A stretch of 22,547 bases of DNA, from IMG/VR virus record IMGVR_UViG_2648501787_000004, positions 1 to 22,547 of that record; one strand, written 5' to 3'. This document shows positions 122 to 22,547 of the stretch, piece after piece. Origin of the DNA: a virus (Duplodnaviria > Heunggongvirae > Uroviricota > Caudoviricetes). Below the pieces are notes generated by a model. The model saw only the letters and a list, made by a program, of their open reading frames with translations, was not told where the DNA came from and did not search any database. A program made the position numbers and the translations under genes. Every line of letters begins with the position of its first letter. Positions within the stretch are counted from its first letter, which is position 1.

Positions 122-139
122 TTATCCAGGTTATAAAAT

Positions 140-3529: not shown

Positions 3530-3551
3530 TCCTCACGCTCCATAAACGACA

Positions 3552-3571: not shown

Positions 3572-3589
3572 CACATAAAACATTTTGCA

Positions 3590-4878: not shown

Positions 4879-4882
4879 GGGA

Positions 4883-5581: not shown

Positions 5582-5590
5582 CAGAGCCTC

Positions 5591-5920
5591 CTATGCCACG
5601 ACCTGTTCAAAATCTGCCGTTATGGTTACCCACAACGCCCCCACGCTTGCCGACCATTTACGACAAACCACCCTGATCGGCTTCCAGTCATAAGGTGGCG
5701 TCCACTGAAATGCGCGGACGCCGCCGTGCCGTTCCAGAAAAGCTTTTAAAGATGGGTGTTCACATTTACGAACACGTATCGTCACGCTGTAAGTCGACAA
5801 CTGGTTATTCAGTCCCGCCGCACGACGCTGTTCATAACCATCGCCCAGCTTCACTGTCACCACTTTCGGCTCTGATACCACATTCATATCCGGGCGCACT
5901 TTCCAGTGAAACGTCTCCAT
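5591..5920 (-). CDS. M: Tail tip protein M
   Basis: 109 aa beginning METFHWKV...GDGY.QR...TYSV...WTPPY.W..I.V.C.KWS, matching lambda M by recall; its start codon overlaps the H stop by 1 nt. Confidence 0.9.
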   Translation of the reverse strand: METFHWKVRPDMNVVSEPKVVTVKLGDGYEQRRAAGLNNQLSTYSVTIRVRKCEHPSLKAFLERHGGVRAFQWTPPYDWKPIRVVCRKWSASVGALWVTITADFEQVVA

Positions 5921-8900
5921 TACCGATATGCTCCACTTAACCGACCACCATCACGGGCCTGCTGTTGCATAAAGTCCGCTGCCGCTTTTTTCCCAAGGTC
6001 ATAAACCACCTTCAGGGCAGCCGGACCTATCTGCCCGTTCGTGCCATCGTTATTGATCTCGATGTTGTACTGCGGGGCAAACATCGCCATACCTGAACCA
6101 CCAATATCCGCCACAACCCCCAGCTTACCGTCAGCACCACGACGCAGTGGCAGAATGGCTTCAGGTCCAGCTTCCCCCATCACACCCGCGCCTTTTGCAA
6201 AAGCAAAAAACGTCGGACGGTTAACCACCGTGCCACTGTAGCGACTCAAATCAGCAGACTGATAAACACCGCCATCCGCATTTGGTGTCACACTGGCAGC
6301 TGCTGCACTCCCCCAGCCAAACGCCGAACCAATCCCCTTCACTGCCTGCATCATGACCATCTGCGACATGATTTTTGCCAGATCAGAAAGGAGCGAGGCG
6401 GTAAAAGATCTGAAGTTCAGTTTTCCGGTGGTACAGAACGTCGCCAGTGCATTACCTGCACTGTTAAATGCCGCTGTAAACATCTGCTCAGCGGTACCTG
6501 CTGCGTTATCCGCACTCTCTGTAAAATTCTGAAACGCCCGCATGGCACCGTTTTTCCAGTCTGCCTGCATCAGTTCCTGTTCCTGCCAGTAGCGTCTGTT
6601 TTCGTTCAGTTGCCGGTTAAGGCTGTCTGTCAGCATCTGCTCAGCATTCCGGTATTCATCTGTGCCGTATGTTCCTTTCTGTTTACTGTCACGCTCCAGT
6701 TGCTCCATCTGCTGCTGATATTTTTGCTGCAGGCTGAACTGTGTCTGGTACCGCTGACGCTGCTTATCTCCCATTCCTGTTGTGGCGATATCCAGGTCAT
6801 GTTGCTGACGCAGAGCCCGTTCCTCTTCCGCCAGCTGGCTGGCAAGCTGAATGGATTTTTTCTTCAGGTCATTCAGCGCCGTCTGCTTCTGCAGCTCCTG
6901 CTGTTTTGCATCCAGCAGCGTCAGTGCCTGAATCAGCTCATCCTTATGCGCCAGCACGCTTTTTTCATCTGCTGTCAGCTTTTTACCCGCCAGGTCACTG
7001 ATACGCTGCTGCAGGGCCAGAAGCTGCTTATGCGCCTCTGTCATTTTTTCCGTGGTCAGTCCCGCGGACTGTCTGGCGGCGGCGATCTGCCCCTCCACCT
7101 GCGCCTGCTGCTGACTGTACTGCAACAGCAACCGGGTGGCTTCATCATTGCGGTTTTCAGATGTTTTTTTCTTAATGGCTTTCTCGTAACGTTCATTTTC
7201 ACGTTGTATCGCCGCATCCCTGACAGCCTGATCGGCGTACTGCATGGCATTAATACGCGCAATTTCACGCTGATGTCGTGCTGCTTCCGTTTCATTCATC
7301 CGGTTCAGTGCAGCATTTTCAGCATTACGGCGTTTCTGTTGCTCCTGATAATTCCGCTCTGCCTGCTCTTTTGCATCCTGCAAATCCTTCTGGCGTTTTT
7401 TCTCCTGAAGATCGTTAAGACGCTGCTGATCGTATTCAACCTGAGAAGATGATGCCGTCCAGGGGAGTCTTTTCGCCCGCGACACTTTCTCCTGTAAAGC
7501 GGCAATCTGTTCATCCAGCGAGTCTTCACGACCAATATTCATGGCCGCATCCCAGAAACGACTCCATAAATCAGACAGATACTTCAGCGTACTGCCCAGC
7601 GCATTGAGGTTATTATCAATATCCGCAGTACGCCGACCGGTTTCCTCTGCCAGTGCAGACATGGCTATCCGTGCCGCATCACTGGACCGCCCCTGATCCC
7701 CAAGGACGCGTATCTGCTCAAGCTGAGTGGCAGTAAGAAAATGCAGCTCATTGTCCAGAGCCTTCGCGGCATTTACAGGATCATCCTTCAGCCGCTTAAA
7801 CTGATTTATGGTATCGCTGACCGACTGGCCAACCGATCGCTCCATCTTTGCGGCAGCTCTCGCCACCATACCGATATCGTTTCCACGAAATGCACCACTC
7901 CCCACCACCTGAGCCAGCGCACCGGCTGCAGCATGTTGCGTGATACCATTCCCGGAAATAGCACGACTGAGCGTCCACAGCTGCCCGGCAGTGACTCCGG
8001 CATAATGCCCCGTCAGTGACAGCTGGCGGTTAAATTCTTCCCCCTCCTTCTGACCGTCATACCAGGCTTTACCCAGACCATAGACGGCCGCGGCAATACC
8101 GCCAATAACCCCGCCCAGCATCATGCCTTTCGGTGACATCAATGTGTCTATCCACCCGGCACGGTTAGCCAGCGTTATTCCGGATCCCCTCAGCGCACCT
8201 AAATTTCCGCGGGCCAGTTCACCTATCAGAACGCCTATCTCCTGACGGGCCGCTGCACTTTTCAGACCCAGCGAATGCGTGGCTTTTCCTGCCTGCTCCA
8301 TTTTGCGGATATACACTTCTGCAGCACTGCTTACCCCCAGCTGGGCAGCCTTAGCACGAAGCAACTCAGAAGAAGAAAGATTCTGGCGGGTTGCCTGCTC
8401 TTTAAGCTGACGGATAAACGCCACTTTCTGTCGGGTAGCCTCTTCCTCAGCCTGTGTAAGAACACGGGTTTTCGCCGTAACCTCAGAAATCAGCGCCAGA
8501 TAATCCTGCTGACCAATCCCGCCACTGTTTCTGGCCTGTCGGATCTGCTGCTGAATACGCTGTAATTCCTGCAGCCCCGCACTGGCCTGTTTCACACTGT
8601 CAATCTGACGATAAAACGCAGCAGCCGCTTTATCCTGAGCCTCCGCCAGAGCCATGGCCTGCGCCTGTTCCTCGCGCATTTTCTGGCTCAGCGCCTCCAT
8701 GCGCTGGCGGGTTTTCTCCACCTCGCGGGCCATGCGTTCATGAGCCTGTGCGTTCTTCTCCACCGTCTGCGCATGGACGGATGCGGCTGTTGCAGCCGAA
8801 GAAGCCGCCTGCGTTGTCTGCCGGGCGGCCTGAGTCTGACGCTCCATAAAACGCTGCATACGGGCAGAAGACCGTTCTGCATCGCTGGCTGCACCATTCA

Positions 8901-8985
8901 GAAGGTTTTTGATACGGGGAATTTCATTTTTAAACTCTGCCGCATCAATCCCCAAATCAATGACCAGGTTGGCTATCTGGTCCAT
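5920..8985 (-). CDS. H: Tail tape measure protein H
   Basis: Track ORF 5920-9015 (1031 aa); the probable start is the internal Met (MDQIANLVIDLGIDAAEFK, cf. lambda MAEPVGDLVVDLSLDAARF); C terminus ...INNDGTNGQIGPAALKVVYD...ARDGGRLSGAYR is lambda-H-like; long Q/E/R/A-rich coiled-coil centre typical of tape measure proteins. Confidence 0.88.
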   Translation of the reverse strand: MDQIANLVIDLGIDAAEFKNEIPRIKNLLNGAASDAERSSARMQRFMERQTQAARQTTQAASSAATAASVHAQTVEKNAQAHERMAREVEKTRQRMEALSQKMREEQAQAMALAEAQDKAAAAFYRQIDSVKQASAGLQELQRIQQQIRQARNSGGIGQQDYLALISEVTAKTRVLTQAEEEATRQKVAFIRQLKEQATRQNLSSSELLRAKAAQLGVSSAAEVYIRKMEQAGKATHSLGLKSAAARQEIGVLIGELARGNLGALRGSGITLANRAGWIDTLMSPKGMMLGGVIGGIAAAVYGLGKAWYDGQKEGEEFNRQLSLTGHYAGVTAGQLWTLSRAISGNGITQHAAAGALAQVVGSGAFRGNDIGMVARAAAKMERSVGQSVSDTINQFKRLKDDPVNAAKALDNELHFLTATQLEQIRVLGDQGRSSDAARIAMSALAEETGRRTADIDNNLNALGSTLKYLSDLWSRFWDAAMNIGREDSLDEQIAALQEKVSRAKRLPWTASSSQVEYDQQRLNDLQEKKRQKDLQDAKEQAERNYQEQQKRRNAENAALNRMNETEAARHQREIARINAMQYADQAVRDAAIQRENERYEKAIKKKTSENRNDEATRLLLQYSQQQAQVEGQIAAARQSAGLTTEKMTEAHKQLLALQQRISDLAGKKLTADEKSVLAHKDELIQALTLLDAKQQELQKQTALNDLKKKSIQLASQLAEEERALRQQHDLDIATTGMGDKQRQRYQTQFSLQQKYQQQMEQLERDSKQKGTYGTDEYRNAEQMLTDSLNRQLNENRRYWQEQELMQADWKNGAMRAFQNFTESADNAAGTAEQMFTAAFNSAGNALATFCTTGKLNFRSFTASLLSDLAKIMSQMVMMQAVKGIGSAFGWGSAAAASVTPNADGGVYQSADLSRYSGTVVNRPTFFAFAKGAGVMGEAGPEAILPLRRGADGKLGVVADIGGSGMAMFAPQYNIEINNDGTNGQIGPAALKVVYDLGKKAAADFMQQQARDGGRLSGAYR

Positions 8986-9319
8986 AACGCACACCTCCGG
9001 AAATACCTTCCCCAAGATGCATCAGTTCTTCGTCCGTTCGCTCCGGTATCCCGTTCTCTTCCGGTAAAAGGCTGAAATCAGCCACCGCAGCATCACTGCT
9101 GCCGGACACCATTCTCACGATCAATGCCTTCAGCGAGGCAAACTGCGCATCCATCCACACATCACTGAAGCTCTGCATCCGGAAATAATCGCCCCACTCC
9201 CCAAGCTCAGTGGCCGACATTTCCGACAGCATCCGCCGCCAGTCTGCCCGCCGGAACTCCCGGGCAAGCCGCATGACAAACTGCATTTCCCGCGTCAGGA
9301 CTTTTCCGGCGTCAGCACC
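8957..9319 (-). CDS. T: T segment of the tail assembly chaperone G-T fusion (reached by -1 frameshift from G)
   Basis: The -1 frame relative to G is open from 9319 (just after an in-frame TGA at 9320-9322) to 8957, overlaps the last 7 codons of G, and ends inside the start of H; classic G/T arrangement upstream of the tape measure gene. The stand-alone ATG at 9286 is probably not used. Confidence 0.7.
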   Translation of the reverse strand, partial: GADAGKVLTREMQFVMRLAREFRRADWRRMLSEMSATELGEWGDYFRMQSFSDVWMDAQFASLKALIVRMVSGSSDAAVADFSLLPEENGIPERTDEELMHLGEGISGGVRYGPDSQPGH

Positions 9320-10897: not shown

Positions 10898-11484
10898 CGG
10901 GTCAGCCATAATCTCAGTTGTTGTTTCAGTGCATACCCCAGCTGTTTCGGCATTTCCGCAGCAATGATGCGGTCGCGGGCATCTTCAAATGCCTGTGTCA
11001 GCGGTCCGGACAGCGGGATTTTCACTACCTCCACAGGAAGACGATTTTTCCTTGGCCTGCCCTGATAGTCATGCCCTGTTGCAAAACGCGCTTCAGGAAG
11101 ACGCCTCAGAACATGCCAGCGGCCATTCGCCAGTTGCTGAACAAATGCCCCCCGGAAAAAGTATTTTCCCACTCTCAGTCCTTCACCAGCACGCCGCCGT
11201 GTTGTGTTCAGTTTGATGGCGGGCAGATTGCCCCGGTTAACGCGGATCCTGGCCGTCATTTTTCCTGACGGACTGGCTTTAAACACCCGGACACGCTGAC
11301 GTACCAGTTTCAGGGGGATCCCTTTCACCTGGTTATCTCCCGCAACGGTATTCCCGGCAACCTGCCGGGTGGCAACCGAGACCGCTTTCTGTGCCACACG
11401 GTTTATCGCCCATGCGCTGGCCTGTGGCACCATACGGGTATCAAGGCTGTTCAGATTGCGGATGGCATTCTCAAGCCCCTTCAT
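10894..11484 (-). CDS. Z: Tail completion protein Z
   Basis: 196 aa; lambda-Z-like features by recall (KGLE.A..NL, IKVNRG.LP.IKL, NGRWHV, VVKIP...PLT.AF, LP..LGYAL..QLR); position between FII and U. Confidence 0.85.
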   Translation of the reverse strand: MKGLENAIRNLNSLDTRMVPQASAWAINRVAQKAVSVATRQVAGNTVAGDNQVKGIPLKLVRQRVRVFKASPSGKMTARIRVNRGNLPAIKLNTTRRRAGEGLRVGKYFFRGAFVQQLANGRWHVLRRLPEARFATGHDYQGRPRKNRLPVEVVKIPLSGPLTQAFEDARDRIIAAEMPKQLGYALKQQLRLWLTR

Positions 11485-12173: not shown

Positions 12174-14132
12174 TTACGCCGTACATTTCACCAGACCGCG
12201 GTGATCAACTGGCGCGACACCGGCGTCAATACGCACTTTCGTTGTCACGCCATCCACACTGAAGCCCTCCATCTGATCAATATATGGCGTATCCACACCG
12301 TTGAGATAAGCCACTTCAATCGTATCGGAGCCTTTTGACGCAGCCAGGTAGAAGGTGGTCTGGCTGTTATCATCAAGACGAGGCTCTGCAATAACGGTCG
12401 CAAAATCTTTCACCGGGTTAATAATACCGGCGTTAATGTCAGCCCCCTTGACACTTGAGGAGCGAATGACCTGGTTAGCAACAGACTCCATCGCCGTCGG
12501 TACCAGTACGAACGCAGGACGAATATTCAGATGACGCTCCCCCTCTTTCTGAACGCGCATCAACTGGCGGGCTTTATCCAGCGATGCCACGTCCATTGCA
12601 GCGCTCTCCAGTACGTTTGCATGTTTCGCTTTATCGAACAGACTTACATTATCTGTGGAGATTTTCGGGTTAGACGTCAGAATGGCATAAACCAGATCGG
12701 CAATAGTGGATTTCGCCGCACGGCCCAGCTTCATCGGGACATCGGTCAGCATATTCAGATCATCATTGATAATGGCCTGACGGGTGATACTGAACAGCTC
12801 GCCATAGGTCGCCAGTGCAATAGTGGCCTGTTTATCTCCGGTGGTGACGTATTTATATTCCGCCCCTTCACGCACCTGACGCAGAGCACTGAAGCCCCCC
12901 ATACCCACACGATGGGCAATTTTAAAATCAGACAACTGACCTTTCCGCGTCCACTGTTCATAGGTTTCAGGGGCATCTTCCCAGCCCTGCAGAATGGCTT
13001 TGTTCGCAACATCCAGCAGAATATTACCGAAGTCAGACGTACTGTGTGTGAACGCCGCACCGACCATCTGCATCGGGTTATAACTGGAAATCCCAATACC
13101 CCGTTCAGTCAGTGACATACGGGCATATTCACGCAGGGTCATCCCGTTGTAGACATTATCACGTTCGGTTTTTTCAAATCCGGCACGCGCCATCAGCGCC
13201 TGGCGAATCCCGTCCCCCACAAAATTACCGTTACCGGCATAAATATGAGCCGGGGTATTTTTATTGGATGGCGTGGACTCGCGCCCCATCTCGTTCAACA
13301 GCTTTTCGCGGGCCTGCTCCAGCGAACATTCAGGATCGGCAAGACACTGAGCCTGCAGCGTCTGATAACGCCCGCCAAACATGGCAAACAGATCATTAAT
13401 ACCGTTTACACGCGCTTTTTGCTCTGCCAGTACCTGCGCACGGATGCTGTTTTCATCCACCACGGGTGCTGCTGCCTGCACTGGCGTCCGGGAGGCTGCA
13501 GGTTCATCATCCTGTACGCGTGGAGCACTGTTGCGTGGCGGAGTAATCATGTTTCGAATGGATTCCGGCATCTTTTTAAATTCCTCTGTACGTTTTGACT
13601 GAATACATGCCATTGCCTTAACGGCTGGCGTCACCTGATCAGCAAATCCATGTGCCAGACATTCGGCACCGGACATCCAGGTCTCATCCGCCAGCATGGC
13701 AGCAATTTCATCGGTGGTTTTCCCGGTTTTCTGTGCATAAGCGGGTAACAGAACCGCCTCAACCTTATCGAGCAGGTCGGCATAGGTGCGCATGTCCTCC
13801 GCATCACCGCCCGTAAAGCCAAATGGTTTATGAATCATCATGAAGGTGTTTTCCGGCATAATGACCGGGTTTCCCACCATCGCAATGACCGACGCCATTG
13901 ACGCCGCCACACCGTCGACATAAACGGTAATGGACGCACCATGTGTTTTCAGTGCATTAAAAATGGCGATGCCTTCAAAGACATCGCCACCCGGTGAATT
14001 GATATGGAGATTAATGTGGGTGATATCGCCCAGTGCATTCAGATCACTGATAAACTGCTTCGCTGTAACACCCCAGAAACCAATCTCGTCATAAATATAA
14101 ATATCCGCGTCACTCTGGTGACCAGCCTGCAT
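12174..14132 (-). CDS. Prohead protease / scaffold / major capsid fusion protein (copy 1)
   Basis: Track ORF 12174-14393 extends into the portal gene; the likely start is MQAGHQSDADIYIYDEIG (ATG 14132-14130), 14 nt after the portal stop. N-terminal ClpP/S49-like protease region (HINLHINSPGGDVFEG...VDGVAASMASV), C-terminal region with capsid-like character; ~652 aa. Confidence 0.85.
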   Translation of the reverse strand: MQAGHQSDADIYIYDEIGFWGVTAKQFISDLNALGDITHINLHINSPGGDVFEGIAIFNALKTHGASITVYVDGVAASMASVIAMVGNPVIMPENTFMMIHKPFGFTGGDAEDMRTYADLLDKVEAVLLPAYAQKTGKTTDEIAAMLADETWMSGAECLAHGFADQVTPAVKAMACIQSKRTEEFKKMPESIRNMITPPRNSAPRVQDDEPAASRTPVQAAAPVVDENSIRAQVLAEQKARVNGINDLFAMFGGRYQTLQAQCLADPECSLEQAREKLLNEMGRESTPSNKNTPAHIYAGNGNFVGDGIRQALMARAGFEKTERDNVYNGMTLREYARMSLTERGIGISSYNPMQMVGAAFTHSTSDFGNILLDVANKAILQGWEDAPETYEQWTRKGQLSDFKIAHRVGMGGFSALRQVREGAEYKYVTTGDKQATIALATYGELFSITRQAIINDDLNMLTDVPMKLGRAAKSTIADLVYAILTSNPKISTDNVSLFDKAKHANVLESAAMDVASLDKARQLMRVQKEGERHLNIRPAFVLVPTAMESVANQVIRSSSVKGADINAGIINPVKDFATVIAEPRLDDNSQTTFYLAASKGSDTIEVAYLNGVDTPYIDQMEGFSVDGVTTKVRIDAGVAPVDHRGLVKCTA

Positions 14133-14145
14133 CCTGAACCAGGAA

Positions 14146-15654
14146 TTATTCTTCGGACTGGTCGTCGGTGTGCTGCGGCTCCTGTCGTTTCGTTGCGGCA
14201 CTGCTGCCTCCTTTATCACTGGCCGGATCGGTATCAAATACCAGATCCAGCTTGCGGTTTTCATCAATTTCGGCCTTGCGCCGACGTTTGACATCATCCG
14301 GATTACGACCACCAGCACGTACCCAGTCTGATTCTGTCGCCGCTCCACCACGAATCTGGATTTTCCAGGCCTCAGCCTCCTTAACAGGGTCAATCCACGG
14401 CATCACCGGTCCGGAATACACCGCGGTATACAGTGAAGAACGGTCAAGATCGCGGGGTAGCCTGATAACACCGGATGCCACAGCCTGTTTCAGCCAGGCA
14501 CGATACATCGGGCGGGTGACGGCACCAATAAACCAGTCCTGCAGGATCAGGTAGCCATCTGTGGATTCAACCAGCTCCTGACGCTGGGCGCTGTAAGTGC
14601 CGTTATAGTTGCGTGCCGTACTGGAAAAACTCAGACGACTGCCCGCCGCCACGGCACGCAACTGACCATTACGAAAAGTTTCAAGGTTAGGATTGGGACG
14701 ATCCGACTTCACCATTCCGATTTCTTCGCCGGGTTTCAGATCGTCGTAAATAATGCCTGGCTGAATGGTAAGCTCGCGTTCATTCTCCTTGCTGCCATTA
14801 CCATCCGGTTCATAGCTCTGCCCGTCGCCTTTCCGGATGTACATCCCCAGAGCAGCGGCGACCCTTGCTGCAGTCAGCTCAGAATCTTCATACTCTTTCA
14901 GGGCACTGAGGCGGATCAGCACACCGGACAACAAAGACGTCCCGCGCATCTGGTGCAGACGGCGAACAAATTTAAGATGCAGCATTCGCTCTGCATCCAC
15001 TTCTTTGGTTTCCATCTGCCGCCAGGATACGGGACGACTTTTATACACCAGATATTTTTCGGGACGCCCCCAGTCATCAACAAACACGCCCTGATTCAGC
15101 CTGTTGCTCTCATCACTGGTCATGGGAATAAAGTCTGGCTCGAGCGCCTCCAGCCAGAAATGAACACCGGCAGAAGGCGTCAGGTTGTTTATGCGCCCGG
15201 AAACCATCTGGGCAAACACCTCACCATCGCGCAGCCAGGTACGCAACATCAGACGTTCCAGCATCGGACGGGTAAACTGCCCGGTGACTTCCGGGCTGAC
15301 AGACCATTCACTCCATCGGGTGCGTATCTCCGCTGCCAGATCACGGGCAATGGCCCCATTGCGTAATACCGGATGTGGCTCGACAATAATCCCGTTTTTC
15401 CCCACCACCCGTTCTTCCAGCTTGTCAAATACACCAATAACCAGATCGTGGTTGTTATCAAGGTAACGGGCCTGCTCACGTAACGACACGGCCCCGTACT
15501 GGCTTAACTGGTCGGCAGTTCGGTTTTCCCGCCGGGCTTTGTGTGTCCGCGTCGTTTTTACGGCCTCATAAGCCTGGATCACCGCACGGGAACGCAGCCT
15601 TGCCGCTTTCCATCCTGGTGAAAAAACGCCAATCACATCATCAAGAATTGCCAT
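14146..15654 (-). CDS. Portal protein
   Basis: Track ORF 14146-15726; the likely start is MAILDDVIGVF at ATG 15654-15652, overlapping the W stop by 1 nt (TGATG); ~500 aa, acidic C-terminal tail; position between W and the capsid gene. Confidence 0.85.
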   Translation of the reverse strand: MAILDDVIGVFSPGWKAARLRSRAVIQAYEAVKTTRTHKARRENRTADQLSQYGAVSLREQARYLDNNHDLVIGVFDKLEERVVGKNGIIVEPHPVLRNGAIARDLAAEIRTRWSEWSVSPEVTGQFTRPMLERLMLRTWLRDGEVFAQMVSGRINNLTPSAGVHFWLEALEPDFIPMTSDESNRLNQGVFVDDWGRPEKYLVYKSRPVSWRQMETKEVDAERMLHLKFVRRLHQMRGTSLLSGVLIRLSALKEYEDSELTAARVAAALGMYIRKGDGQSYEPDGNGSKENERELTIQPGIIYDDLKPGEEIGMVKSDRPNPNLETFRNGQLRAVAAGSRLSFSSTARNYNGTYSAQRQELVESTDGYLILQDWFIGAVTRPMYRAWLKQAVASGVIRLPRDLDRSSLYTAVYSGPVMPWIDPVKEAEAWKIQIRGGAATESDWVRAGGRNPDDVKRRRKAEIDENRKLDLVFDTDPASDKGGSSAATKRQEPQHTDDQSEE

Positions 15655-15872
15655 CAGAACCTCGCCAGCCGGTACCCGGGATGCCCCCGTCGTCGTGTAA
15701 TCAGAGCCGCAAGGCGGCGCTCCCACTCCTGCCGTCCCTGCCGGATCTCAGATAAGTTTTCCATGGTCATCTGCTGACCATTAAAGGTGACGGATTTTCC
15801 GTCCAGCACCGCCATTTCAGCTTCCGTATAACGCTGAATCATGGCTTCGATATCATTCTGGTTCATAACCAT
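15654..15872 (-). CDS. W: Head-tail joining / head completion protein, gpW-like
   Basis: 72 aa (or 70 from Met3); C-terminal RRRGHPGY resembles the lambda W C terminus (RRRGPAGFYV); placed between terminase large subunit and portal as in lambda. Confidence 0.6.
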   Translation of the reverse strand: MVMNQNDIEAMIQRYTEAEMAVLDGKSVTFNGQQMTMENLSEIRQGRQEWERRLAALITRRRGHPGYRLARF

Positions 15873-16975
15873 CCTCCGGAAGTCAGCCAGGGGTTAACAT
15901 CGTCAGTTACTGTTTTCTTCCGTTTTTGTTTTTTAACAGGCGTGGATACCGGTTCCGGTGAGGGTGACGGTTTGGTACTGTCCGGGACACACTCCAGCCA
16001 GGTTTCCCGGCTCGCCCATTCCGGTGCATCCGGCCAGCGGATCTTTTCGTATCCATGCAGAATGACCAGAGCCTCGGCATACACCATCAGGTCAAAAGCT
16101 TCGTTGGCACCGCGACCCGGCTTACTCCATTTCCCGTCACTGCTCCGCTCTTCATACGTCAGTTCGTCGTAAAACCAGCTCCCCAGCCAGTCAGGGAAAT
16201 GCACATAGCCGGGACCTGGAGAGTCACGCCATAACGCGTTATTCACCCGGTCTTTCAGGGCATCCGTCTGAAGAAGCCAGAGCGGCACATCACCTGCGGC
16301 CTGCGCCCGTCGGCCCGTTCGTCCGGTGTTATCAGGGAATGTACGGGTGATCAGTTTTGCGCGCCGGATGCTGTCGCCCTTAAACAAGTAAATACGTTTA
16401 CCAAGGCCATCACGACGGCAACGACGCCAGAATTTATAGGCATTATCAGTGACCCCGTCTTCACCGCCGGAATCCACCGCCATTGCCATCAGTCGCATTT
16501 GTTGAGAAGGATCGGAGGCCAGCGGCCAGCTTTTATGAAAAACATCCGTCAGCAGGACATCCCAGTCTTCCGGATAGCTGGCCGGATCAATTCGCTGGCT
16601 CTCCCCGTCGCTGTCACCGCGCAATGACTGCGTGATGTTGTAACGATCAATAATCCAGCGTTCGCCACGGCTGCCATAGCCCGTTACCTGAACCACAAAA
16701 CGGCGATGACGTCCCGCCTGCACATCAACTGTCGCCACCAGGAAATTAACGCCATCCGGCACACTGCGGGAAGGAACTGGCTCTGCCCGCTGCTCAAGCA
16801 GTTCACTTTTTCGTTGCTCCATGCTGGCACGGGGAAGATAAGGTAATCCCCAGTCGGTATTGATAACCGTCTTGAGTGTTTCTTCACTTCCGGTTGTCTC
16901 GTATTCCTGTTCTGCAGTAAGCAGTTTGTAAACGAGTTGCGAGAGTGTCTGGTAAGCAGCTGCCGGACCCTCCAT
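15863..16975 (-). pseudogene. A: Terminase large subunit, C-terminal (nuclease) domain only; N-terminal ATPase domain absent
   Basis: 370-aa ORF resembling roughly the C-terminal half of lambda gpA (e.g. VATVDVQ..., WDSKKRRNEALDCFVYA-like region ...GANEAFDLMVYAEAL). Upstream in frame there are only 11 unrelated codons before a stop (17009-17011), and the sequence above 16980 is AT-rich non-coding DNA. Confidence 0.75.
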
Positions 16976-16979
16976 CCAG

Positions 16980-17440
16980 GAAGAAGTAAATAAAAGGTAA
17001 CTAAATGATTATAAGGTACTATTGAGTTATGCCCCCTACAACATAGTCCCAGATTTAGTACCTGCTTAAGCGATAAAAAAGCCAAAAAGGAAGCAATATT
17101 AATTATTGCCGCTATGCATGATCACAATGACAAATCAGAGGCGGAATTCCGCTCTCGGAACTCACATATGAGAAACGATATTTCTTCCACCGATACCCTT
17201 TATTTGGGTATCGCGAGTAAGCCCCAAAATCTGGGTGTTACTCTTACTACCCAAACTACGGGTAGTTTCCGTAGTTTCATAGTCGAGTTGCAGATCTGCA
17301 ACTCGCCACCAGTTGCTAAGTGCATTTTTGCACTTTCGATAATATCAACCAGTTACCGCCGTAAGTGCTCCGGCTTCCTCCACTGGTAAGTATTTTTCGC
17401 GCTCTCCCTCCGTTGTTGAGAACGGCGACGGTATGCCAGC
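16980..17440. other. AT-rich, palindrome-rich non-coding segment replacing the middle of the terminase large subunit gene
   Basis: Visibly AT-rich compared with flanking genes; contains the perfect 12-bp palindrome GCGGAATTCCGC (17141-17152), hairpin CGATACCC-n7-GGGTATCG (17191-17213), inverted repeat AAACTACGG-n7-CCGTAGTTT (~17252-17276) and a perfect 20-bp palindrome GAGTTGCAGATCTGCAACTC (17285-17304). No ORF with recognisable similarity. Confidence 0.6.
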
Positions 17441-17640
17441 AACTCAAGAACTCTGGTTCGTATGTTGCGCATATCAACGCCGTTAAGCTCAATACCGTCA
17501 CGGCGCATCACCTCAGCCACCACACGCGCGTAATTTTCAGCGGTGACTGTATCCGGCTGCGCGGCCTGTTCGTCAGCCAACTGGCTGATTCCACCAGCAC
17601 AGCGGATTAATCGCAGTATTTCAGATTCGGTCATTATCAT
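17353..17640 (-). pseudogene. Short ORF translationally coupled to the small terminase gene; probably the N-terminal remnant of the large terminase gene
   Basis: Its ATG overlaps the Nu1-like stop by 4 nt (17637-17640), the position where the large terminase gene normally starts; the last ~30 codons are Arg/Gln-rich and run into the AT-rich segment, suggesting read-through into non-native sequence. Homology to the gpA N terminus is weak. Confidence 0.35.
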
Positions 17641-18122
17641 GCCTGTTTTGCGACCTCATTCACTACGTCATTTTTTACCATCCGGCTGATAATCTGATTA
17701 CGCAAATCGTCAATAATTGACTGCACTCTGTTTACTGCCATCGGTTTAAGCCCGGCATCACGTGCCAGAATATTGGGGAGTTTTGCCAGTTCCTCGCTTA
17801 CGATTTCCCCCCATATAGCCATCTCTTTTCGCACATCATCGGCGGGTATGAGTTGCGCCGTTTCCTGTTCGAACTTGAGGCGCTCACGTTCGGACTGATA
17901 CCAGGCCTTACGGTCATGTGGCTCCATTTCTTCCAGTGATGCCGGAACGGGAAGATCAAGAAAACAGGTCAGAATGTCAGTCACCCGATAGAGTTTTAGC
18001 TTGTCATGCCCTCCGGCTGGCTGGATGTTTTTCAGCCTTGCCGCCGCAGTCTGACGACATATTCCCGCTATCGCCGCCAGTTGATTAATGTTCAGCATCA
18101 GATTTTTCAGTTCTCGATCCAT
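17637..18122 (-). CDS. Terminase small subunit, Nu1-like
   Basis: Track ORF 17637-18209; the likely start is MDRELKNLMLNINQLAAIAGICRQTAAARL (ATG 18122-18120, GGAG 7 nt upstream). N-terminal helix-turn-helix followed by a charged coiled region (ERERLKFEQETAQL), laid out like lambda Nu1; first gene after a cos-like region. Confidence 0.65.
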   Translation of the reverse strand: MDRELKNLMLNINQLAAIAGICRQTAAARLKNIQPAGGHDKLKLYRVTDILTCFLDLPVPASLEEMEPHDRKAWYQSERERLKFEQETAQLIPADDVRKEMAIWGEIVSEELAKLPNILARDAGLKPMAVNRVQSIIDDLRNQIISRMVKNDVVNEVAKQA

Positions 18123-18289
18123 ACCCGCTCCAGAATGTTTTAAACATGCATCTTGCGAACAACTTTCAGAAGAGGTCAAAAAATGCGCTATATGTTGAGC
18201 ATAAAACAAGCAAAATTAACATGCCAAAAATAAAAACACTTAAAATTCAATATCATAGAAAGATGATGATGACGAATGAAAATGCAAAA
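18123..18289. promoter_or_regulatory. cosB-like AT-rich region with repeated TGCAT-containing motifs between the cos candidate and the small terminase start
   Basis: Minus strand: ...tttttGCATtttcattcgtcat...tttttggCATGttaattttgcttgttttatgc...caagaTGCATGtttaaaac...; contains TTCGTCAT and TGTTTTTATTT, which I recall from lambda cosB. Possible terminase small subunit or IHF binding sites. Confidence 0.35.
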
Positions 18290-18370
18290 ACTAGCCTTTT
18301 TCCGCGCCGCTCCCGCCTCGCGGCAGGCCACCTCACCGGGAGGACCCACCCAAAAAAGGCGACTGTCACT
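18290..18370. promoter_or_regulatory. Candidate cos site (cosQ/cosN-like GC-rich element)
   Basis: Minus strand reads GGGTCCTCCCGGTGAGGTGGCCTGCCGCGAGGCGGGAGCGGCGCGG; the GGGTCCT..CCGGTGA stretch resembles my recollection of the lambda right-end flank (GGGTCCTTTCCGGTGATCC), and the element sits ~170-250 bp upstream of the Nu1-like start. The exact nick positions cannot be assigned. Confidence 0.4.
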
Positions 18371-18432
18371 ATTGTTTATGCTCCATGAGCGACAAAACCG
18401 CCCGCAGGCGGTTTCACATAAAACATTTTGCA

Positions 18433-19074
18433 TCAGCGACCAATCACCACAACCTGACCACCGTCACCTTCGTCTGCCGTGCTGATCTCCTGAGAAACCA
18501 CCCGCGACCCCACACGCATTTCACCGTACAGAACAGGCACAACATTGCCCTGGGCAACCATGTTATCCAGAGAGGAGAAATAGGTGTTCTGCTTACCGTT
18601 ATCCGTGGTGCTGGCTGTTGCTGTGCTGGCTTTCGGTGCCAGCATCTGTGCAACACCACCAAGTGTCATCGCCGCCCCCATTGAAAAGAGAATGTCACTG
18701 AAAGCGATACTGATTCCTGGCATCCAGATTGCCGTAGCAATCAGCGCCGCACCAAGCACCGCCTGAAACACGCCGCCACTTTTGGCACCAGCCAGACGCG
18801 GTACGATGTGGATCACGGCACCATTTTCCAGCGGTTCATTAAGACGGGCTGATAATTCGTTTTCGCCTGTATCACGCCCGGCAATACGCACCTGATACCA
18901 ACCATCGCTCAGTTTCTGACGAAACGCTGGGATCTGCATGGCCAGCGCCCGGATGGCTTCGGCCCCCGTTTTCACATGAAGATCGATGCGGCGGCCAAAT
19001 CGTTGTAAATCCCCGTAAAGGCAGATGCGTGCCATGCCCGGTGACGCCAGAGGGAGTGTGTGCGTCGCTGCCAT
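18433..19074 (-). CDS. I: Tail assembly protein I, second copy (mosaic allele)
   Basis: 213 aa; the N-terminal ~110 aa and C-terminal ~70 aa are almost identical to the I protein at 3590-4237, while the central hydrophobic segment differs (IATAIWMPGISIAFSDILFSMGAAMT versus IAVAWWNPVGWLGAAAVSGMYAAGASMI). Confidence 0.85.
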   Translation of the reverse strand: MAATHTLPLASPGMARICLYGDLQRFGRRIDLHVKTGAEAIRALAMQIPAFRQKLSDGWYQVRIAGRDTGENELSARLNEPLENGAVIHIVPRLAGAKSGGVFQAVLGAALIATAIWMPGISIAFSDILFSMGAAMTLGGVAQMLAPKASTATASTTDNGKQNTYFSSLDNMVAQGNVVPVLYGEMRVGSRVVSQEISTADEGDGGQVVVIGR

Positions 19075-19133
19075 TTGTCGGTATACCTCTCTCGTTTGCT
19101 CAGTTGTTCAGGAATATGGTGCGGCAGCTCGCC
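18972..19133 (-). pseudogene. 3'-terminal remnant of a K gene (truncated at the duplication boundary)
   Basis: The sequence upstream of I copy 2 matches the K/I overlap of copy 1 only up to ~19133, after which it diverges; no K-like N-terminal coding sequence follows. Lower boundary inferred by offset from copy 1. Confidence 0.45.
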
Positions 19134-19163
19134 GCCCCACGTGTTCAAAGTACCGCCTTGTTG

Positions 19164-21077
19164 TCATGCTCCATTCGATTTCAGCAATCCACGATAATCG
19201 AGGGCCGCGACACCTGCATCTATGCGCACCTTCCAGGCGACACCATCAACAGTAAAGCCCACCTGCTCCTCAAGATATGGCGTATCCATACCATCAAGAT
19301 AAGCGACTTCTATTGTGTCCATCCCCTTAGCTGCGGCTACATACCATTCCTTGCTATTGGCCTTATCAAGACGTGGCTCAACAATTACTTCTGCCATATC
19401 TTTCACAACGTTAATGATGCCGGGGTTCTGATTGATAGTGCCCTCATCACCAACCGGAAAGACTGATGACGATGACAGAATGGCGCGACGCGCGGCAGAT
19501 TCCAGCGCGGCAGGGACCAGAACAAAAGCAGGGGTAATATTCAGTGAGTCGCCGTTAGCATCCTCCTGGAGGCGCATCAGCTTACGGGCTTCATCAAGCC
19601 CCACCATGTCCATATCCTTCGCAATAAGATTTTTATGATCGGCATGGAATAACGCTTTACCATCCGTAAACTTGCCGTTGCTGGTTAACAGGAGATAAAC
19701 CAGATTGCCAACTGTTCTGGCGGCTGCGCGTCCCATTGCCATGGGGATTGTAGTTAACTGGGTCAGGTCATCGTTGATAATGGCCTGACGGGTAACGGAA
19801 AAAATATTCCCGTACGTGGCCAGCGCAATAGGTACACCTTTATCGCTGGTGGTGATGTATTTATATTCCGCACCTTCCGGTACTTTATCCAGCTTTGAAA
19901 AACCATTCAGACCAACGCGCTTTGCTTCATGAAAGTTTGAAAGCGAACCGGTACGCGTCCATTTCTGGAACGTTTCGCCGCTGTCCTGCCAGCCTTTCAG
20001 TACAGATTTTTCAGCCCCACCAGCCAGAATATGAGAAAAATCACTGCTGCTGTGTGTAAAAGCCGCATTAACAACCTGCGAGCGATTAATAAAACCACTC
20101 ACAGTGATACCACGATCAACCAGTGATGCCTGGGCCATTTCAAAAAGGCTCATCATCGCGTAAGGGTTGCCTCGTTCAGGGCGTTCATACCCAAGACGGG
20201 AATAAAGCCCCTGACGAATTGCATCACCTGTTATGTTTCCGTTTCCGGCATAGATATGAGGCGGGGTATTTTTATTGGATGGCGTGGACTCGCGCCCCAG
20301 CTCGTTCAACAGCTTTTCACGGGCCATTTCCGGTGTACATGATGCATCTTCCAGACACGCCATTTTGATCCCGTCGTAACGACTGCCGAACAGGCTAAAC
20401 ACTTCACTTATTCCATTGATGCGTTTCTGTTCATTACCAGCAATATTTGCCGCTCCCTGTGGCGGTGTAATCATTCCTTTAATGGTTTCCGGCATATGTA
20501 AAAAATCTCCTGTGCGCTTCGATTCAATTCGCGCCATTGCTCTGACGGATGGCAACAATTCATCAGCAAAACCGTGCTTAAGGCATTCTTTCCCGTCCAT
20601 CCAGGTTTCATCTTCCAGCATGGCGGTAATTTCCTGTGCTGATTTGCCCGTTTTTCTGGCATAAGCAGGGACTAACACGGTTTCCACCTTATCCAGCAAA
20701 TCAGCATAATCACGCATATCACCAGCATTTCCGCCAGAGATACCCCACGGCTTATGTATCATCATCATGGCGTTTTCCGGCATCACAACACGATCGCCAG
20801 CCATTGCGACCACCGAAGCCATTGAAGCCGCAACACCATCGATATAAACCGTAATGTCTGCCGGATGATTCCGTAGCAGGTTATAGATGGCGATGCCTTC
20901 AAACACATCACCACCTGGTGAATGGATCCTCAGATTGATATGTGAAACATCGCCAAGGGCTTTCAGGTCTTCCGCGAACTGCTTTGCAGTAACACCGAAG
21001 CCGCCAATCTCCTCATAGATAGATATATCCGCCGCTCCGCGAACATCCGCCGCCTTAATGGTGTACCAGCGATTCAT
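19164..21077 (-). CDS. Prohead protease / scaffold / major capsid fusion protein (copy 2, divergent)
   Basis: 637 aa, colinear with copy 1 over its whole length but clearly diverged (by eye roughly 60-70% identity); same ClpP/S49-like motifs (HINLRIHSPGGDVFEG, VDGVAASMASV). ATG 21077-21075 with a G-rich RBS; ATGA overlap with the upstream small ORF. Confidence 0.85.
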   Translation of the reverse strand: MNRWYTIKAADVRGAADISIYEEIGGFGVTAKQFAEDLKALGDVSHINLRIHSPGGDVFEGIAIYNLLRNHPADITVYIDGVAASMASVVAMAGDRVVMPENAMMMIHKPWGISGGNAGDMRDYADLLDKVETVLVPAYARKTGKSAQEITAMLEDETWMDGKECLKHGFADELLPSVRAMARIESKRTGDFLHMPETIKGMITPPQGAANIAGNEQKRINGISEVFSLFGSRYDGIKMACLEDASCTPEMAREKLLNELGRESTPSNKNTPPHIYAGNGNITGDAIRQGLYSRLGYERPERGNPYAMMSLFEMAQASLVDRGITVSGFINRSQVVNAAFTHSSSDFSHILAGGAEKSVLKGWQDSGETFQKWTRTGSLSNFHEAKRVGLNGFSKLDKVPEGAEYKYITTSDKGVPIALATYGNIFSVTRQAIINDDLTQLTTIPMAMGRAAARTVGNLVYLLLTSNGKFTDGKALFHADHKNLIAKDMDMVGLDEARKLMRLQEDANGDSLNITPAFVLVPAALESAARRAILSSSSVFPVGDEGTINQNPGIINVVKDMAEVIVEPRLDKANSKEWYVAAAKGMDTIEVAYLDGMDTPYLEEQVGFTVDGVAWKVRIDAGVAALDYRGLLKSNGA

Positions 21078-21283
21078 TGTTCCCCCACCGATGCAAAACC
21101 ATTCTGATTAAGCCAGGTGTTTACGGCATGTCTGACAATCTGCGCCACACCTGGTAATGGTTGGTCAGGATGATGATTTATATGGTCGATCCTGTACTGC
21201 TTAAGGCGCATAACGGTCTGCGCATCCAGATGAACGGAACCACCTCTGGTATCACCTGTGTTCAGGTCATTAATACAACTCAC
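21074..21283 (-). CDS. Hypothetical small protein (69 aa), translationally coupled to capsid gene copy 2
   Basis: GTG start at 21283-21281 with GAGGAAG 6-7 nt upstream; stop overlaps the capsid-2 ATG (ATGA). No recognisable family from sequence alone. Confidence 0.45.
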   Translation of the reverse strand: MSCINDLNTGDTRGGSVHLDAQTVMRLKQYRIDHINHHPDQPLPGVAQIVRHAVNTWLNQNGFASVGEQ

Positions 21284-21385
21284 AGCAACTTCCTCTGACT
21301 GACTAAACTATGCACATTATTGATCGATAAAAGTGGTAAATAAACATATTTCTATCATAAAAACAGATTAATTAGATTCAGACAC

Positions 21386-21407
21386 AAAAAAGCCGGATTT
21401 CTCCGGC
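21386..21407 (-). terminator. Rho-independent terminator downstream of the primase gene and iteron array
   Basis: Minus strand: GCCGGA-gaaa-TCCGGC stem-loop (21392-21407) followed by TTTTTT (21386-21391). Confidence 0.65.
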
Positions 21408-21537
21408 TTCTGTCACTCGTTGCTTAAAACGGTATGTTATCCCCGTACGGATCATCATTCCCCGCCTGTTGTTTTGGTGTGCTTCGCTGTCATAGGCTTT
21501 ATCTCACAGCAGTAAATTAAAATTTTTGCGTTTTAAC

Positions 21538-21766
21538 CCTTCACCTGTTCACCTTTTGATATTTTCTCTATTAATTCATAATGTTAAGGGGTGAACAGTT
21601 TCAAAAAAACTATTCACCAACTGTTCACCACTGTTCACCCTTGAAGCTCAATAAACAATCAAAAAGGTGAACAGTGAATAGTTTGGTGAACAGTTCATAA
21701 ATAACTGCTCACCCTATAATATACTGATATAAAAGATATTTATGACAGGGTGAACAGTGGTGAACA
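21538..21766. repeat. Iteron array of TGTTCACC octamers in both orientations (P4 ori/crr-type)
   Basis: Perfect TGTTCACC at 21546-21553, 21622-21629 and 21632-21639; perfect reverse-orientation GGTGAACA at 21590-21597, 21666-21673, 21685-21692, 21749-21756 and 21759-21766; one-mismatch variants at 21611-21618, 21674-21681 and 21706-21713. Embedded in AT-rich DNA directly downstream of the primase stop. Confidence 0.75.
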
Positions 21767-21780
21767 GTTATTCCATAAGT

Positions 21781-22547
21781 TTAATTTTTGCTATCGTCAT
21801 TAGTGACCGATACACATGATGGCATCCAGTCTTCTGATTCCTCCGTCAGTGTCACGTTTGAACGCAAACCGTGCTTCGTTTTCCGTTTCATATACTCCCT
21901 GCCATATTCCGCCATTGCCCCCGGCATATCTTTACCGAAGCGCGTCAGTGTTACAGGTTTACCAAACCCATGTGCCCTCATATAAGCCAGATAGGCATGA
22001 TAGAGATACCTGCGTGGGCTGAATGGCACAATTTCAGCATTACCCACTAACAGGCCATCACACATTACCGACGCCATGAGATAGCCGCAGAAGTCCACCA
22101 GCGAATCCCCCTCTCGCTTTATCGCCAGTGCTTCTTCAGATTTCTGCTGCTCATATAACAGGCGTCTGGCTTCGTCCTGGTTAGCAAACCGTGTAAGCAG
22201 ATGGCGAATCACTACCGCCAGCTCACCTTCTATTTTTTCCGCCAGCATTGGATCACGTTCGTTCTCCGGTACAACTTCCGAAAAATTGAATATCACCCGA
22301 CGACGTGAGATCCCCCCGCTGCGGTCACTGAATGACATGGCGTTATTGTTAACCGCCAGCACTACTGCCGGAATACGCGTTGAGTAGGGGGCTTTGTGTT
22401 TCGGGTCAATTGCCACCTTGTCACCGCCTGTAATAGCCTTAATCCCTGCTCCATCACCAGCGTAGCGGGTCATATCCGGCATGATAATCAGCGAAAAGCC
22501 AACCACTAACGCGCGTTCCCTTGCATCTTCCAGCGCCTTCATGCTTG
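21781..22547 (-). CDS. Phage/plasmid primase, P4 family, C-terminal region (partial; 5' end outside the window)
   Basis: Open frame from the window edge to the stop at 21781; contains ITGGDKVAI...RRRVIFNFSEVVPENERD...IEGELAVVIRHLL, which matches my recollection of the conserved C-terminal region of P4 alpha-type primases (D5_N/primase_Cterm). Direct adjacency to TGTTCACC iterons supports this. Confidence 0.7.
   Translation of the reverse strand, partial: SMKALEDARERALVVGFSLIIMPDMTRYAGDGAGIKAITGGDKVAIDPKHKAPYSTRIPAVVLAVNNNAMSFSDRSGGISRRRVIFNFSEVVPENERDPMLAEKIEGELAVVIRHLLTRFANQDEARRLLYEQQKSEEALAIKREGDSLVDFCGYLMASVMCDGLLVGNAEIVPFSPRRYLYHAYLAYMRAHGFGKPVTLTRFGKDMPGAMAEYGREYMKRKTKHGLRSNVTLTEESEDWMPSCVSVTNDDSKN

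Follow-up and report, generated by a model that had tools for sequence, protein, structure and literature searches.

Gene content of the late region

The DNA analyzed here, IMG/VR record IMGVR_UViG_2648501787_000004, is a stretch of 22,547 nt (referred to as a whole as the window; positions are window coordinates unless another locus is named) that carries two genes for a ClpP-protease/scaffold/major-capsid fusion protein, the second of which (copy 2) is the subject of this report. The minus strand encodes all long open reading frames (ORFs) of the window, which together make up a lambdoid late region. In order of increasing coordinates, J (140-3529) is followed by the tape-measure gene, genes for the tail and for head completion, the first capsid fusion gene (copy 1), the portal gene, a W-like ORF, and an ORF of 370 amino acids (aa). 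Behind this ORF, copy 2 is found among several small genes and the severed end of a primase/helicase gene. The resident prophage is an mEp460-like lambdoid prophage of Escherichia coli, hereafter called the helper. As argued below, copy 2 almost certainly belongs to a satellite, a phage-inducible chromosomal island (PICI), embedded in the large terminase gene (terL) of this prophage. Rfam and tRNA scans of the window gave zero matches.

Copy 2 encodes a protein of 637 aa that scores 900.6 bits (cutoff, 475) against the NCBIfam family NF045540, [quoted passage not shown]; Pfam matches and coordinates of both copies are listed in Table 1, and the Pfam and NCBIfam scores are sufficient to assign the fold family of copy 2. 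In agreement with the preliminary description of this DNA, which was made from the sequence alone, the two genes are full-length and colinear but clearly diverged, with 58% (BLASTP) or 61% (MAFFT) amino acid identity from end to end. In the MAFFT alignment, the protease is the best conserved part (69% identity), ahead of the capsid (58%) and the linker/scaffold (56%). Nucleotide identity is merely 64-71%, so the two copies are not the product of a recent duplication, as the preliminary description had also concluded. The catalytic Ser (GVAASMAS) and His (MIHKP) of ClpP, located by alignment to the ClpP catalytic residues, are present in both proteins, and DETWM is common to both in the region of the third catalytic residue (copy 2, EDETWM; copy 1, ADETWM). 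Relative to copy 1, copy 2 is missing 29 residues of the Pro/Ala-rich linker.

The copy 1 protein is 100% identical to the annotated helper gene products of E. coli strains A20 and B1-56. Three starts can be considered for copy 1: the mechanically called ORF begins at a TTG (12174-14393, 739 aa); the preliminary description chose an ATG at 14132 (652 aa); and the NCBI Prokaryotic Genome Annotation Pipeline (PGAP) places the start of the identical protein in relatives 24 codons upstream of this ATG, at a GTG that overlaps the 3' end of the portal gene (14201; 675 aa plus stop). The N-terminal extension of the PGAP model aligns with the N terminus of copy 2 and has a motif in common with it (SWFRMQA / RWYTIKA). 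This motif favors the PGAP start, and copy 1 probably begins at 14201 rather than 14132.

A satellite island integrated in terL

The right part of the window (15500-22547) was compared by megablast with 5,426 complete E. coli genomes. The segment from about 17112 to 22547 is conserved as a separate unit in many of them, and its junction with the 370-aa ORF was found in just 13. In strain 751 of sequence type 131 (ST131), the unit forms the right part of a roughly 11-kb island (a size taken from gene coordinates) between thiM and rcnR. The first genes of this island encode an integrase, a helix-turn-helix (HTH) protein, DUF6387, YlcI, an Icd-like protein, a hypothetical protein, DUF4222, and the primase, and these are followed by the fusion gene, a K remnant, I, DUF1441, and a 93-aa hypothetical protein. 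The same backbone was identified behind other integrases at three chromosomal sites, namely thiM/rcnR, smrA/abgR (locus L004), and clpS/cspD.

In A20-like genomes, the window from about 16976 to 22547 corresponds to the right-hand part of an island of ~10.4 kb, the components of which include Bro-N. The island measures 10,413 bp in A20, which is 98.8% identical to the window over 7 kb and 100% identical in copy 2, and 10,828 bp in B1-56. The A20 integrase, a 412-aa protein with Arm-DNA-bind_3 and Phage_integrase domains, is encoded directly after the left attachment site (attL) and is transcribed inward. A 67-aa protein annotated as "helix-turn-helix transcriptional regulator" has sub-threshold matches to HTH_17 (E=0.004; 17.8 bits, cutoff 27) and Xis_Gifsy_1 (E=0.024). 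The complete primase gene in A20 encodes 605 aa with D5_N, DUF5906, and Pox_D5 domains. The ORF of 69 aa that precedes copy 2, a copy-2-like gene, and a P4-type primase occur together repeatedly; in Enterobacter, the same capsid gene pair is accompanied by an AAA_25 replicase instead.

The position of the island explains the truncated terminase gene beside copy 2. The counterpart of the 370-aa ORF in A20 and B1-56 is annotated as "terminase gpA endonuclease subunit, missing N-terminus". In both strains the island splits terL and is co-oriented with it, a GpA_ATPase fragment of 331 aa lying upstream of the integrase gene and the GpA_nuclease fragment lying downstream of the island; the insertion site falls between these two domains. 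The attL site (locus L002, 28162-28168) and the attR site of the window have the sequence CTGGATG(t/g)AGGGT in common. When the flanks are rejoined at this core, they are in frame (..RIASFWMEGPAAAYQ..), and the terL junction expected after excision reads ..TTCTGGATGGAGGGT... The rejoined site matches uninterrupted terL genes as one piece, with 99.9% identity in the best genomes and at least 99% in 941 records, and with 99-99.9% identity to the cultured phages Ayreon, mEp460, and phi458. Because the flanks rejoin into an intact terL, the truncated terminase gene is the scar of a precise site-specific insertion and not of a deletion; the truncated gpA adjoins copy 2 because the satellite was inserted into the large-terminase gene of the prophage itself. 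With terL split, the prophage is unable to produce the large terminase subunit (TerL) before excision of the island. An immediate TAG terminates the N-terminal terL fragment and an in-frame ATG opens the C-terminal one, so two half-proteins could be made in the lysogen.

This integrase type, searched for with the integrase and attL as the query, was detected in 84 of the 5,426 complete genomes, and a terL fragment lies directly upstream of the integrase gene in all 40 among the matches listed. Carriers include O121:H19, O111, O145, and O157 strains. O157 and O121 prophages have diverged terL alleles that are interrupted at the same codon, the core reading TTGGATG or CTGGATG within SFWM|EGPAAA; the attachment sites lie at ~14020 and 24367 in E. 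coli O157 FDAARGOS_293 (locus L007) and at ~14335 and 24532 in O121:H19 16-9255 (locus L008). The prophage that hosts the terL-embedded island in FDAARGOS_293 carries stx1a (relevant segments, 5527-6753 and 13021-25491), and the island itself has no small terminase subunit (TerS) homologue and contains a third type of capsid fusion gene, a small upstream ORF, and a 94-aa ORF. The helper fusion gene is a pseudogene in both of these genomes (frameshift in L007, 27192-29170; internal stop in L008, 27309-29336) and the island copy is intact, which may be due to chance, the prophages being in decay, or may point to complementation. In a published account of the Sakai prophages, the terminase genes are intact except in Sp4, in which nu1 is disrupted, and no such insertion is mentioned (PMC2669165, Asadulghani 2009); satellites are likewise not mentioned in PMC8112680.

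No portal, W, or TerL gene is present within the inserted element. Thus, the preliminary description was right that copy 2 has no portal, W, or large terminase partner, and its view that any terminase partner was lacking did not hold, because the element includes a DUF1441 gene of the TerS type and a cos-like block. The insertion in the prophage's own terL, the TerS homologue with its cos-like site, and the published capsid-bearing PICIs discussed below were not considered in that description.

Copy 2 as a satellite-specific capsid lineage

Copy 2 is under strong purifying selection. The ratio of nonsynonymous to synonymous substitution rates (dN/dS) is 0.06-0.09, at a synonymous divergence (dS) of 0.11-0.25, among islands from four different sites; the gene is intact in all eight islands examined; and full-length matches occur in 195 of the 5,426 complete E. 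coli genomes (at least 94% nucleotide identity in the sampled rows). A tblastn search of 50,697 phage records returned zero full-length homologues of copy 2 above 57% identity, and the best phage matches were the normal capsid fusions of VT1-Sakai, Stx2 phages, mEp213, mEp043, and mEp460. The genes that travel with copy 2 show the same pattern: the 69-aa protein has zero matches in these phage records, and a conserved protein of 95 aa, encoded next to the TerS homologue, has a single weak match. Since copy 2 is under purifying selection, has no phage copy above 57% identity, and has partners that are essentially absent from phage records, it is an old and selected capsid polyprotein lineage specific to satellites, neither a recent capture nor a relic. 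It is very probably a functional gene.

Other members of this group of islands point in the same direction. The terL-targeting islands of Shiga toxin-producing E. coli (STEC) carry the third fusion type mentioned above, which is 63% identical to copy 2 and 53% identical to the helper protein, and which has a linker deletion too. Both satellite fusion types (copy 2, and L007 21564-23453) are without 29-34 Pro/Ala-rich linker residues that helper copies have. The linker deletion may be a trait common to satellites, with a bearing on how long the scaffold and how large the shell is.

Comparison with known satellites

Gram-negative PICIs have been defined by an integrase gene, alpA, a pri-rep gene with a replication origin, and sometimes capsid homologues and terS (PMC6092414, Fillol-Salom 2018), and five core components of PICIs have been distinguished: integrase, regulator, primase-replicase, "capsid morphogenesis", and small terminase (PMC10085698, de Sousa 2023). 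By these definitions the island described here is a PICI, with the reservation that the matches of its 67-aa HTH protein to AlpA/Xis-type families are below threshold; its length falls within the ~10-15 kb of such elements. It resembles classical PICIs such as EcCICFT073 in having an integrase, a candidate AlpA-like regulator, a primase with an iteron origin, a capsid homologue, and a putative packaging-redirection gene, as well as in its ~10-kb size and in the predicted packaging from cos with the aid of a lambdoid helper. The rcnR/thiM site of the ST131 island is also that of the reference island EcCI224. EcCICFT073 differs in that it encodes lambda-E and D homologues plus Rpp, which binds TerS, whereas the present island encodes a ClpP/scaffold/major capsid protein (MCP) polyprotein and a genuine TerS homologue, and in that it occupies a chromosomal site instead of terL.

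The closest published counterparts are the helper-embedded PICIs (HE-PICIs), which are integrated co-oriented in prophage late genes at 14 (or 15) sites in nine genes, and whose Late zone is dynamic and made up of captured late genes; of 29 reference Gram-negative PICIs, 21 have capsid genes (PMC10111431, Tommasini, Mageeney & Williams 2023). The co-oriented, in-frame rejoinable split of terL places the window island in the helper-embedded configuration. It has the same four zones (Integration, Bro, Replication, and Late) as the prototype Eco567.11capE of E. coli NRG857c, with the capsid gene in the Late zone, and the Icd-like, DUF4222, primase, and YlcI families are common to both. In contrast, its integrase is only 25% identical (pairwise, over 89% of the length) to that of 11capE, whereas ordinary chromosomal PICIs built on this backbone have integrases with 42-45% identity to the 11capE enzyme. 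The doubled arm motif of HE-PICIs, TGTATTGC / tgTGTATTGCantgTGTATTGCa, said to be unique and at fixed distances from the attP core, is not found in this island: with up to three mismatches allowed, tgTGTATTGCantgTGTATTGCa was found neither in the window nor in the islands of A20 and B1-56, and it occurs twice in 11capE, which served as the positive control. The gene A sites published for HE-PICIs lie in Terminase_1-family proteins (Terminase_1:132 and :245/246; att identities, aatatcacga and ttaccaa), compared with CTGGATG in a GpA-family TerL here. Finally, the capsid gene is a ClpP/scaffold/MCP fusion and not of the lambda-E type.

Neither "GpA" nor "ttctggatg" occurs in the accessible portions of the PMC10111431 supplements, and a limited literature search gave no description of this terL-targeting lineage, which is absence of evidence and not proof of novelty. 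The arrangement is therefore of an already published kind, and its integrase, site, and arm sequences apparently represent a helper-embedded lineage that the parts of the literature consulted do not catalogue.

Copy-2-type genes themselves are already on record. The published att flanks of Eco38.10.C_CLP_protease_110 translate to ..ASVVAMAGDRVVMPENAMMMI / MMIHKPWGISGGNAGDMRDYADLLDKVETVL.., which is the copy 2 protein sequence, indicating that such genes have been seen in PICIs, without an assigned function. PICIs at tRNA-Ile2 were reported to be invaded by HE-PICIs of the C:CLP_protease:110 type (PMC10111431). In these tRNA-Ile2/CLP_protease islands and in the Enterobacter HE-PICIs, the gene was recorded as a target site or Late-zone gene, and the integrases and sites are different from those described here. 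The att identity of the C:CLP_protease:110 HE-PICIs, ATGATGATCCAT, is found with one mismatch in both fusion genes of the window (20754-20765 and 13830-13841), at the MMIH codons around the catalytic His, so the satellite capsid gene is itself a potential landing site for another satellite. In this regard, 24 PICI-in-PICI composites have been reported (PMC10111431).

The capsid-forming PICIs (cf-PICIs), exemplified by EcCIEDL933 (10.1101/2022.09.08.507074), also have their own capsid protein, maturation protease, and small terminase. They are larger (~15 kb), and they additionally encode a portal, head-tail connectors, an HNH protein, and TerL. Genes for the portal, connectors, HNH protein, and TerL were all absent between attL and attR in A20 and B1-56 and from the chromosomal islands, so the element is not a cf-PICI, and its own shells, if built, must borrow the portal and TerL of the helper. 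A different precedent is Ccm of SaPIbov5, which is likewise a satellite homologue of a helper HK97-fold capsid protein in a cos-packaged element (PMC8569155, Hawkins et al. 2021) and is the one case in which such a homologue, positioned at the pentamers, has been shown to change the size of helper capsids (PMC8569155). However, SaPIbov5 is a Gram-positive element, and Ccm belongs to a different capsid family and is unfused to protease or scaffold. Only P4-alpha-like primase domains are common to P4 and the island, and the surrounding helper is lambdoid, not P2-type; the P4 genes sid, psu, delta, and epsilon are not among the annotations of the sister islands, for which no dedicated profile search was made.

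Proposed role of copy 2 and alternative explanations

The best overall explanation, to which a probability of about 80% is assigned, is that copy 2 is the capsid-morphogenesis gene of a PICI that was integrated by its own tyrosine integrase in the terL gene of an mEp460-like prophage. The suggestion in the preliminary description that copy 2 is the accessory capsid gene of a satellite was thus borne out with respect to its identity, while the capsid remodelling or formation also proposed there is a predicted function. The odds that copy 2 serves in capsid assembly or remodelling on behalf of the satellite are judged, from the sequence features described, to be about even, and the more specific proposal that it makes small capsids is tentative and somewhat less probable.

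According to the proposed mechanism, induction of the helper would cause late transcription to read into the island, which would then excise and replicate. The TerS homologue would bind a cosB-like region of the island and recruit helper TerL to a cosN common to both elements. The polyprotein would supply protease, scaffold, and shell in one chain, needing only a portal, and would assemble on helper portals, either alone or mixed with the helper capsid protein, into shells that favor island DNA. Several of these steps have precedents: late transcription and helper replication propagate into embedded islands, with excision after replication (PMC10111431), and PICIs redirect the helper terminase to their own cos (PMC6739421). 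With respect to shell size, four island genomes amount to 41.7-43.3 kb compared with 44.5 kb for an mEp460-type helper (our own estimate), and a single genome would call for a much smaller shell. This arithmetic fits full-sized shells holding four genomes as well as small shells holding one 10.4-kb genome, and does not by itself decide the size.

Several points weigh against this interpretation. The window does not extend to the integrase gene, attL, or the N-terminal part of terL, which are deduced from genomes that are 97-99% identical over the overlapping 7 kb. A pattern scan found no sigma-70 promoter for the late module. Some terL-targeting islands have no TerS homologue, so this part of the model is not universal. 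In EcCICFT073, the one Gram-negative PICI so tested, deletion of the lambda-E-type capsid gene or of the decoration gene did not relieve phage interference (PMC6092414, PMC6739421), and the island is packaged in phage-sized capsids (PMC6092414, PMC6739421); PICI capsid genes have also been reported not to be required for transfer (PMC10111431). On the EcCICFT073 precedent, remodelling does not follow from the mere presence of a capsid homologue in a PICI, and such a gene may have no detectable part in transfer.

These precedents leave room for a second explanation, in which copy 2 is a captured late gene that is selfishly retained without a role in satellite spread, either as a spare for a broken helper capsid gene or as a passenger of the Late zone. 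Capture of late genes and a "backup copy" role have been proposed, and knockout of a PICI capsid gene was tolerated (PMC10111431). The two STEC genomes with a broken helper fusion gene and an intact island copy (O157 FDAARGOS_293 and O121:H19 16-9255) would fit such a role, and the K'-I piece described in the final section proves that passengers occur. However, copy 2 is just 57-61% identical to every helper or phage copy, hence it was not captured recently, and it travels with the satellite-specific 69-aa ORF, to which it is coupled, and with the 95-aa ORF. It is also under strong purifying selection across islands at different sites, and since the interrupted gene here is terL and not the capsid gene, the notion of a backup for the interrupted gene does not apply. 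This explanation is considered improbable.

A third explanation, held to be more improbable still, is that copy 2 acts mainly as an anti-helper interference factor whose protease or capsid domain poisons the assembly or maturation of helper proheads. Interference with the helper is a conserved trait of PICIs (PMC6739421), and copy 2, as a capsid subunit of 58% identity whose linker is shortened, could join the helper protein in assembly and disrupt the process. A fragment would suffice as a poison, yet protease, scaffold, and capsid domains are all intact, including the catalytic Ser and His; furthermore, the embedded island depends on the portal, TerL, and tails of the helper, and a total block of prohead formation would stop its own transfer. 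The weakest alternative, offered in the preliminary description as one of two options, is that copy 2 remains from a second lambdoid prophage, integrated beside the first and then mostly deleted. Although copy 2, the K remnant, I, and DUF1441 all have homologues among lambdoid late genes and are not in the usual order of these, and the K'-I piece truly is a captured prophage fragment, this view is rejected as extremely unlikely because the element is an island bounded by att sites (10.4-10.8 kb where both ends were mapped) with its own integrase, primase, and origin, which recurs at several sites, because its flanks rejoin into an intact terL, and because copy 2 is of a type found in no phage record, intact in every island examined, and under purifying selection at the dN/dS given above.

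Returning to the satellite capsid-morphogenesis gene, a broader joint proposal, which is regarded as rather unlikely, is that these islands are a "half capsid-forming" PICI lineage that also represents a second evolution of helper embedding. In its first part, satellite-specific procapsids would be built on the helper portal, and the TerS homologue and cos would divert helper TerL; the lineage would then stand between classical PICIs and cf-PICIs. In its second part, an integrase only ~25% identical to the published HE-PICI clade would have adopted as its target the conserved SFWMEGPAAA motif at the GpA ATPase/nuclease junction, including that of an O157 Stx1a prophage.

Implications

The apparent anomaly of two capsid genes and a truncated terminase gene in one late operon is accounted for by a prophage with a satellite in its terminase gene, and not by rearrangement or decay. 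Annotation pipelines label such prophages as defective, with a "broken" terL, while excision of the island should restore the gene; the ability of the helper to package DNA is thereby tied to excision of the satellite. One of the carriers is an Stx1a prophage, and the arrangement could affect the mobility of a toxin phage. Helper embedding, moreover, probably extends beyond the single integrase clade surveyed so far. What the capsid genes of Gram-negative PICIs do could be addressed in this lineage, which is tractable owing to cultured phages with an intact target site (mEp460, Ayreon, and phi458), a compact late module, and natural variants that have no TerS homologue or have a different capsid type.

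Partner genes and other features of the island

Coordinates of the island features and of the adjoining helper genes are collected in Table 1.

Table 1. Features of the terL-embedded island and adjoining helper genes in the window
Feature	Position	Strand	Remarks
Copy 1, ClpP-protease/scaffold/major-capsid fusion of the helper	12174..14201	minus	Pfam CLP_protease 4e-36, Phage_capsid_4 7e-55
Portal gene	14146-15726	minus	
terL C-terminal fragment (GpA nuclease domain, 370 aa), severed by the satellite insertion	15863..16975	minus	Pfam GpA_nuclease 3e-83
attR crossover core CTGGATG	16973..16979	minus	At codons W-M of ..RIASFWM|EGPAAAYQ.. in terL
Satellite right arm (attP arm)	16980..17352	minus	16980 to ~17111 specific to the integrase type; from ~17112 common with chromosomal islands
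95-aa conserved satellite protein	17353..17640	minus	Start overlaps the stop of the TerS-like gene; phrog_1561 3e-51
Satellite TerS homologue (DUF1441)	17637..18122	minus	Pfam DUF1441 3e-36; phrog_141 "terminase small subunit" 4e-58; mechanical ORF extends to 18209
cos-like block, putative cosN/cosQ, ~84 bp	18264..18347	minus	Near-invariant between satellites and helper phages (4 islands, 2 helpers aligned)
Captured full-length tail assembly gene of the lambda I type	18433..19074	minus	Pfam Lambda_tail_I 3e-23; 85% aa and 87% nt identity to helper I
K (tail tip) 3'-end remnant, last ~54 codons	18972..19134	minus	PGAP "phage tail protein, missing N-terminus" in relatives
Copy 2, ClpP-protease/scaffold/major-capsid fusion of the satellite	19164..21077	minus	637 aa, ATG start; Pfam CLP_protease 2e-35, Phage_capsid_4 3e-54
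69-aa ORF coupled to copy 2	21074..21283	minus	GTG start, GAGGA Shine-Dalgarno sequence, ATGA overlap
Terminator-like hairpin between replication and late modules	21388..21411	minus	10-bp stem and T-run; conserved, duplicated in L004
Putative satellite replication origin	21540..21780	.	At least 10 iterons GGTGAACAGT in both orientations, directly 3' of the primase gene
Primase/helicase 3' part, severed by the window end	21781..22547	minus	Pfam Pox_D5 8e-13

The preliminary description had placed a 69-aa ORF directly before copy 2, joined to it by an ATGA overlap, and this overlap is present in the window and in all seven islands examined. The 69-aa protein matches phrog_4934 at 5e-33 and belongs to a family of ~70-aa proteins in Escherichia, Citrobacter, Enterobacter, and Yokenella. 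In Enterobacter, a 70-aa ORF always lies directly upstream of a 638-aa fusion gene, in islands that are embedded in the CLP_protease gene of the helper. AlphaFold2 (AF2) predicts a strand and two helices, a fold resembling ribbon-helix-helix proteins, at low confidence (mean predicted local distance difference test [pLDDT] score of 58 with a family alignment). For the 95-aa protein, which is represented by 862 protein clusters in Enterobacteriaceae and is retained even by islands that have no TerS homologue, AF2 predicts three helices, again at low confidence (pLDDT 62 with a family alignment). A Salmonella contig with the 94-aa gene added no information. The possibility that the 95-aa ORF is a remnant of the terL N terminus captured by imprecise excision was rejected, as there is zero similarity between them. 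Pfam and NCBIfam searches at relaxed thresholds gave nothing usable for the small ORFs, and neither the TerS homologue nor the 95-aa protein has a significant sequence match among PDB chains. These chains presumably include the structures of Rpp.

The TerS homologue is 68% identical to the DUF1441 protein of the helper itself, which is encoded directly upstream of terL. Between the cos-like block and the TerS start lie ~140 bp that consistently differ between islands and helpers; the near-invariant block is a putative cosN/cosQ and the variable ~140 bp a putative cosB. The window contains a 26-mer of the block a single time, at one mismatch (zero expected by chance), and the block is also found upstream of TerS in the cultured phage mEp460, whose record begins at the TerS start codon and not at cos. 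The lambda cosN sequence (GGGCGGCGACCT) is absent from all loci, with near matches in the window at chance level only. In L004, a second copy of the cos-like block is present (11449-11474 and 8913-8938), compared with the single copy in the window; the extra copy lies in a ~240-bp insert between duplicated terminator hairpins, upstream of the 69-aa ORF.

Downstream of copy 2, the K remnant and gene I noted in the preliminary description form a 755-bp piece (K'-I) that is 87% identical (blastn) to the helper (window 19134-18380; helper 4297-3537) and ends exactly at the I/J boundary. Gene I is the one exception to the lack of tail, lysis, portal, and TerL genes in the island, and most sister islands are without it: the K'-I piece is present in the window, A20, and ST131 strain 751 and is absent from B1-56, L004, L005, L007, and L008. 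By sequence comparison, it is a recent late-gene capture from a prophage and a variable passenger, of the kind proposed in PMC10111431.

The boundary within the right arm was set by the megablast breakpoint against chromosomal islands, at window 17112-17139. No repeated 8-mer common to the reconstructed attP arms passed a simple count; a motif read by eye, TTATCGCTT, is present in both arms (window 17068-17076; L002 28048-28056). The position of the iteron site matches the origin position described for Gram-negative PICIs (PMC6092414). In sister islands, a gene for a single-stranded DNA-binding protein and a small ORF are inserted between the primase gene and the late module.

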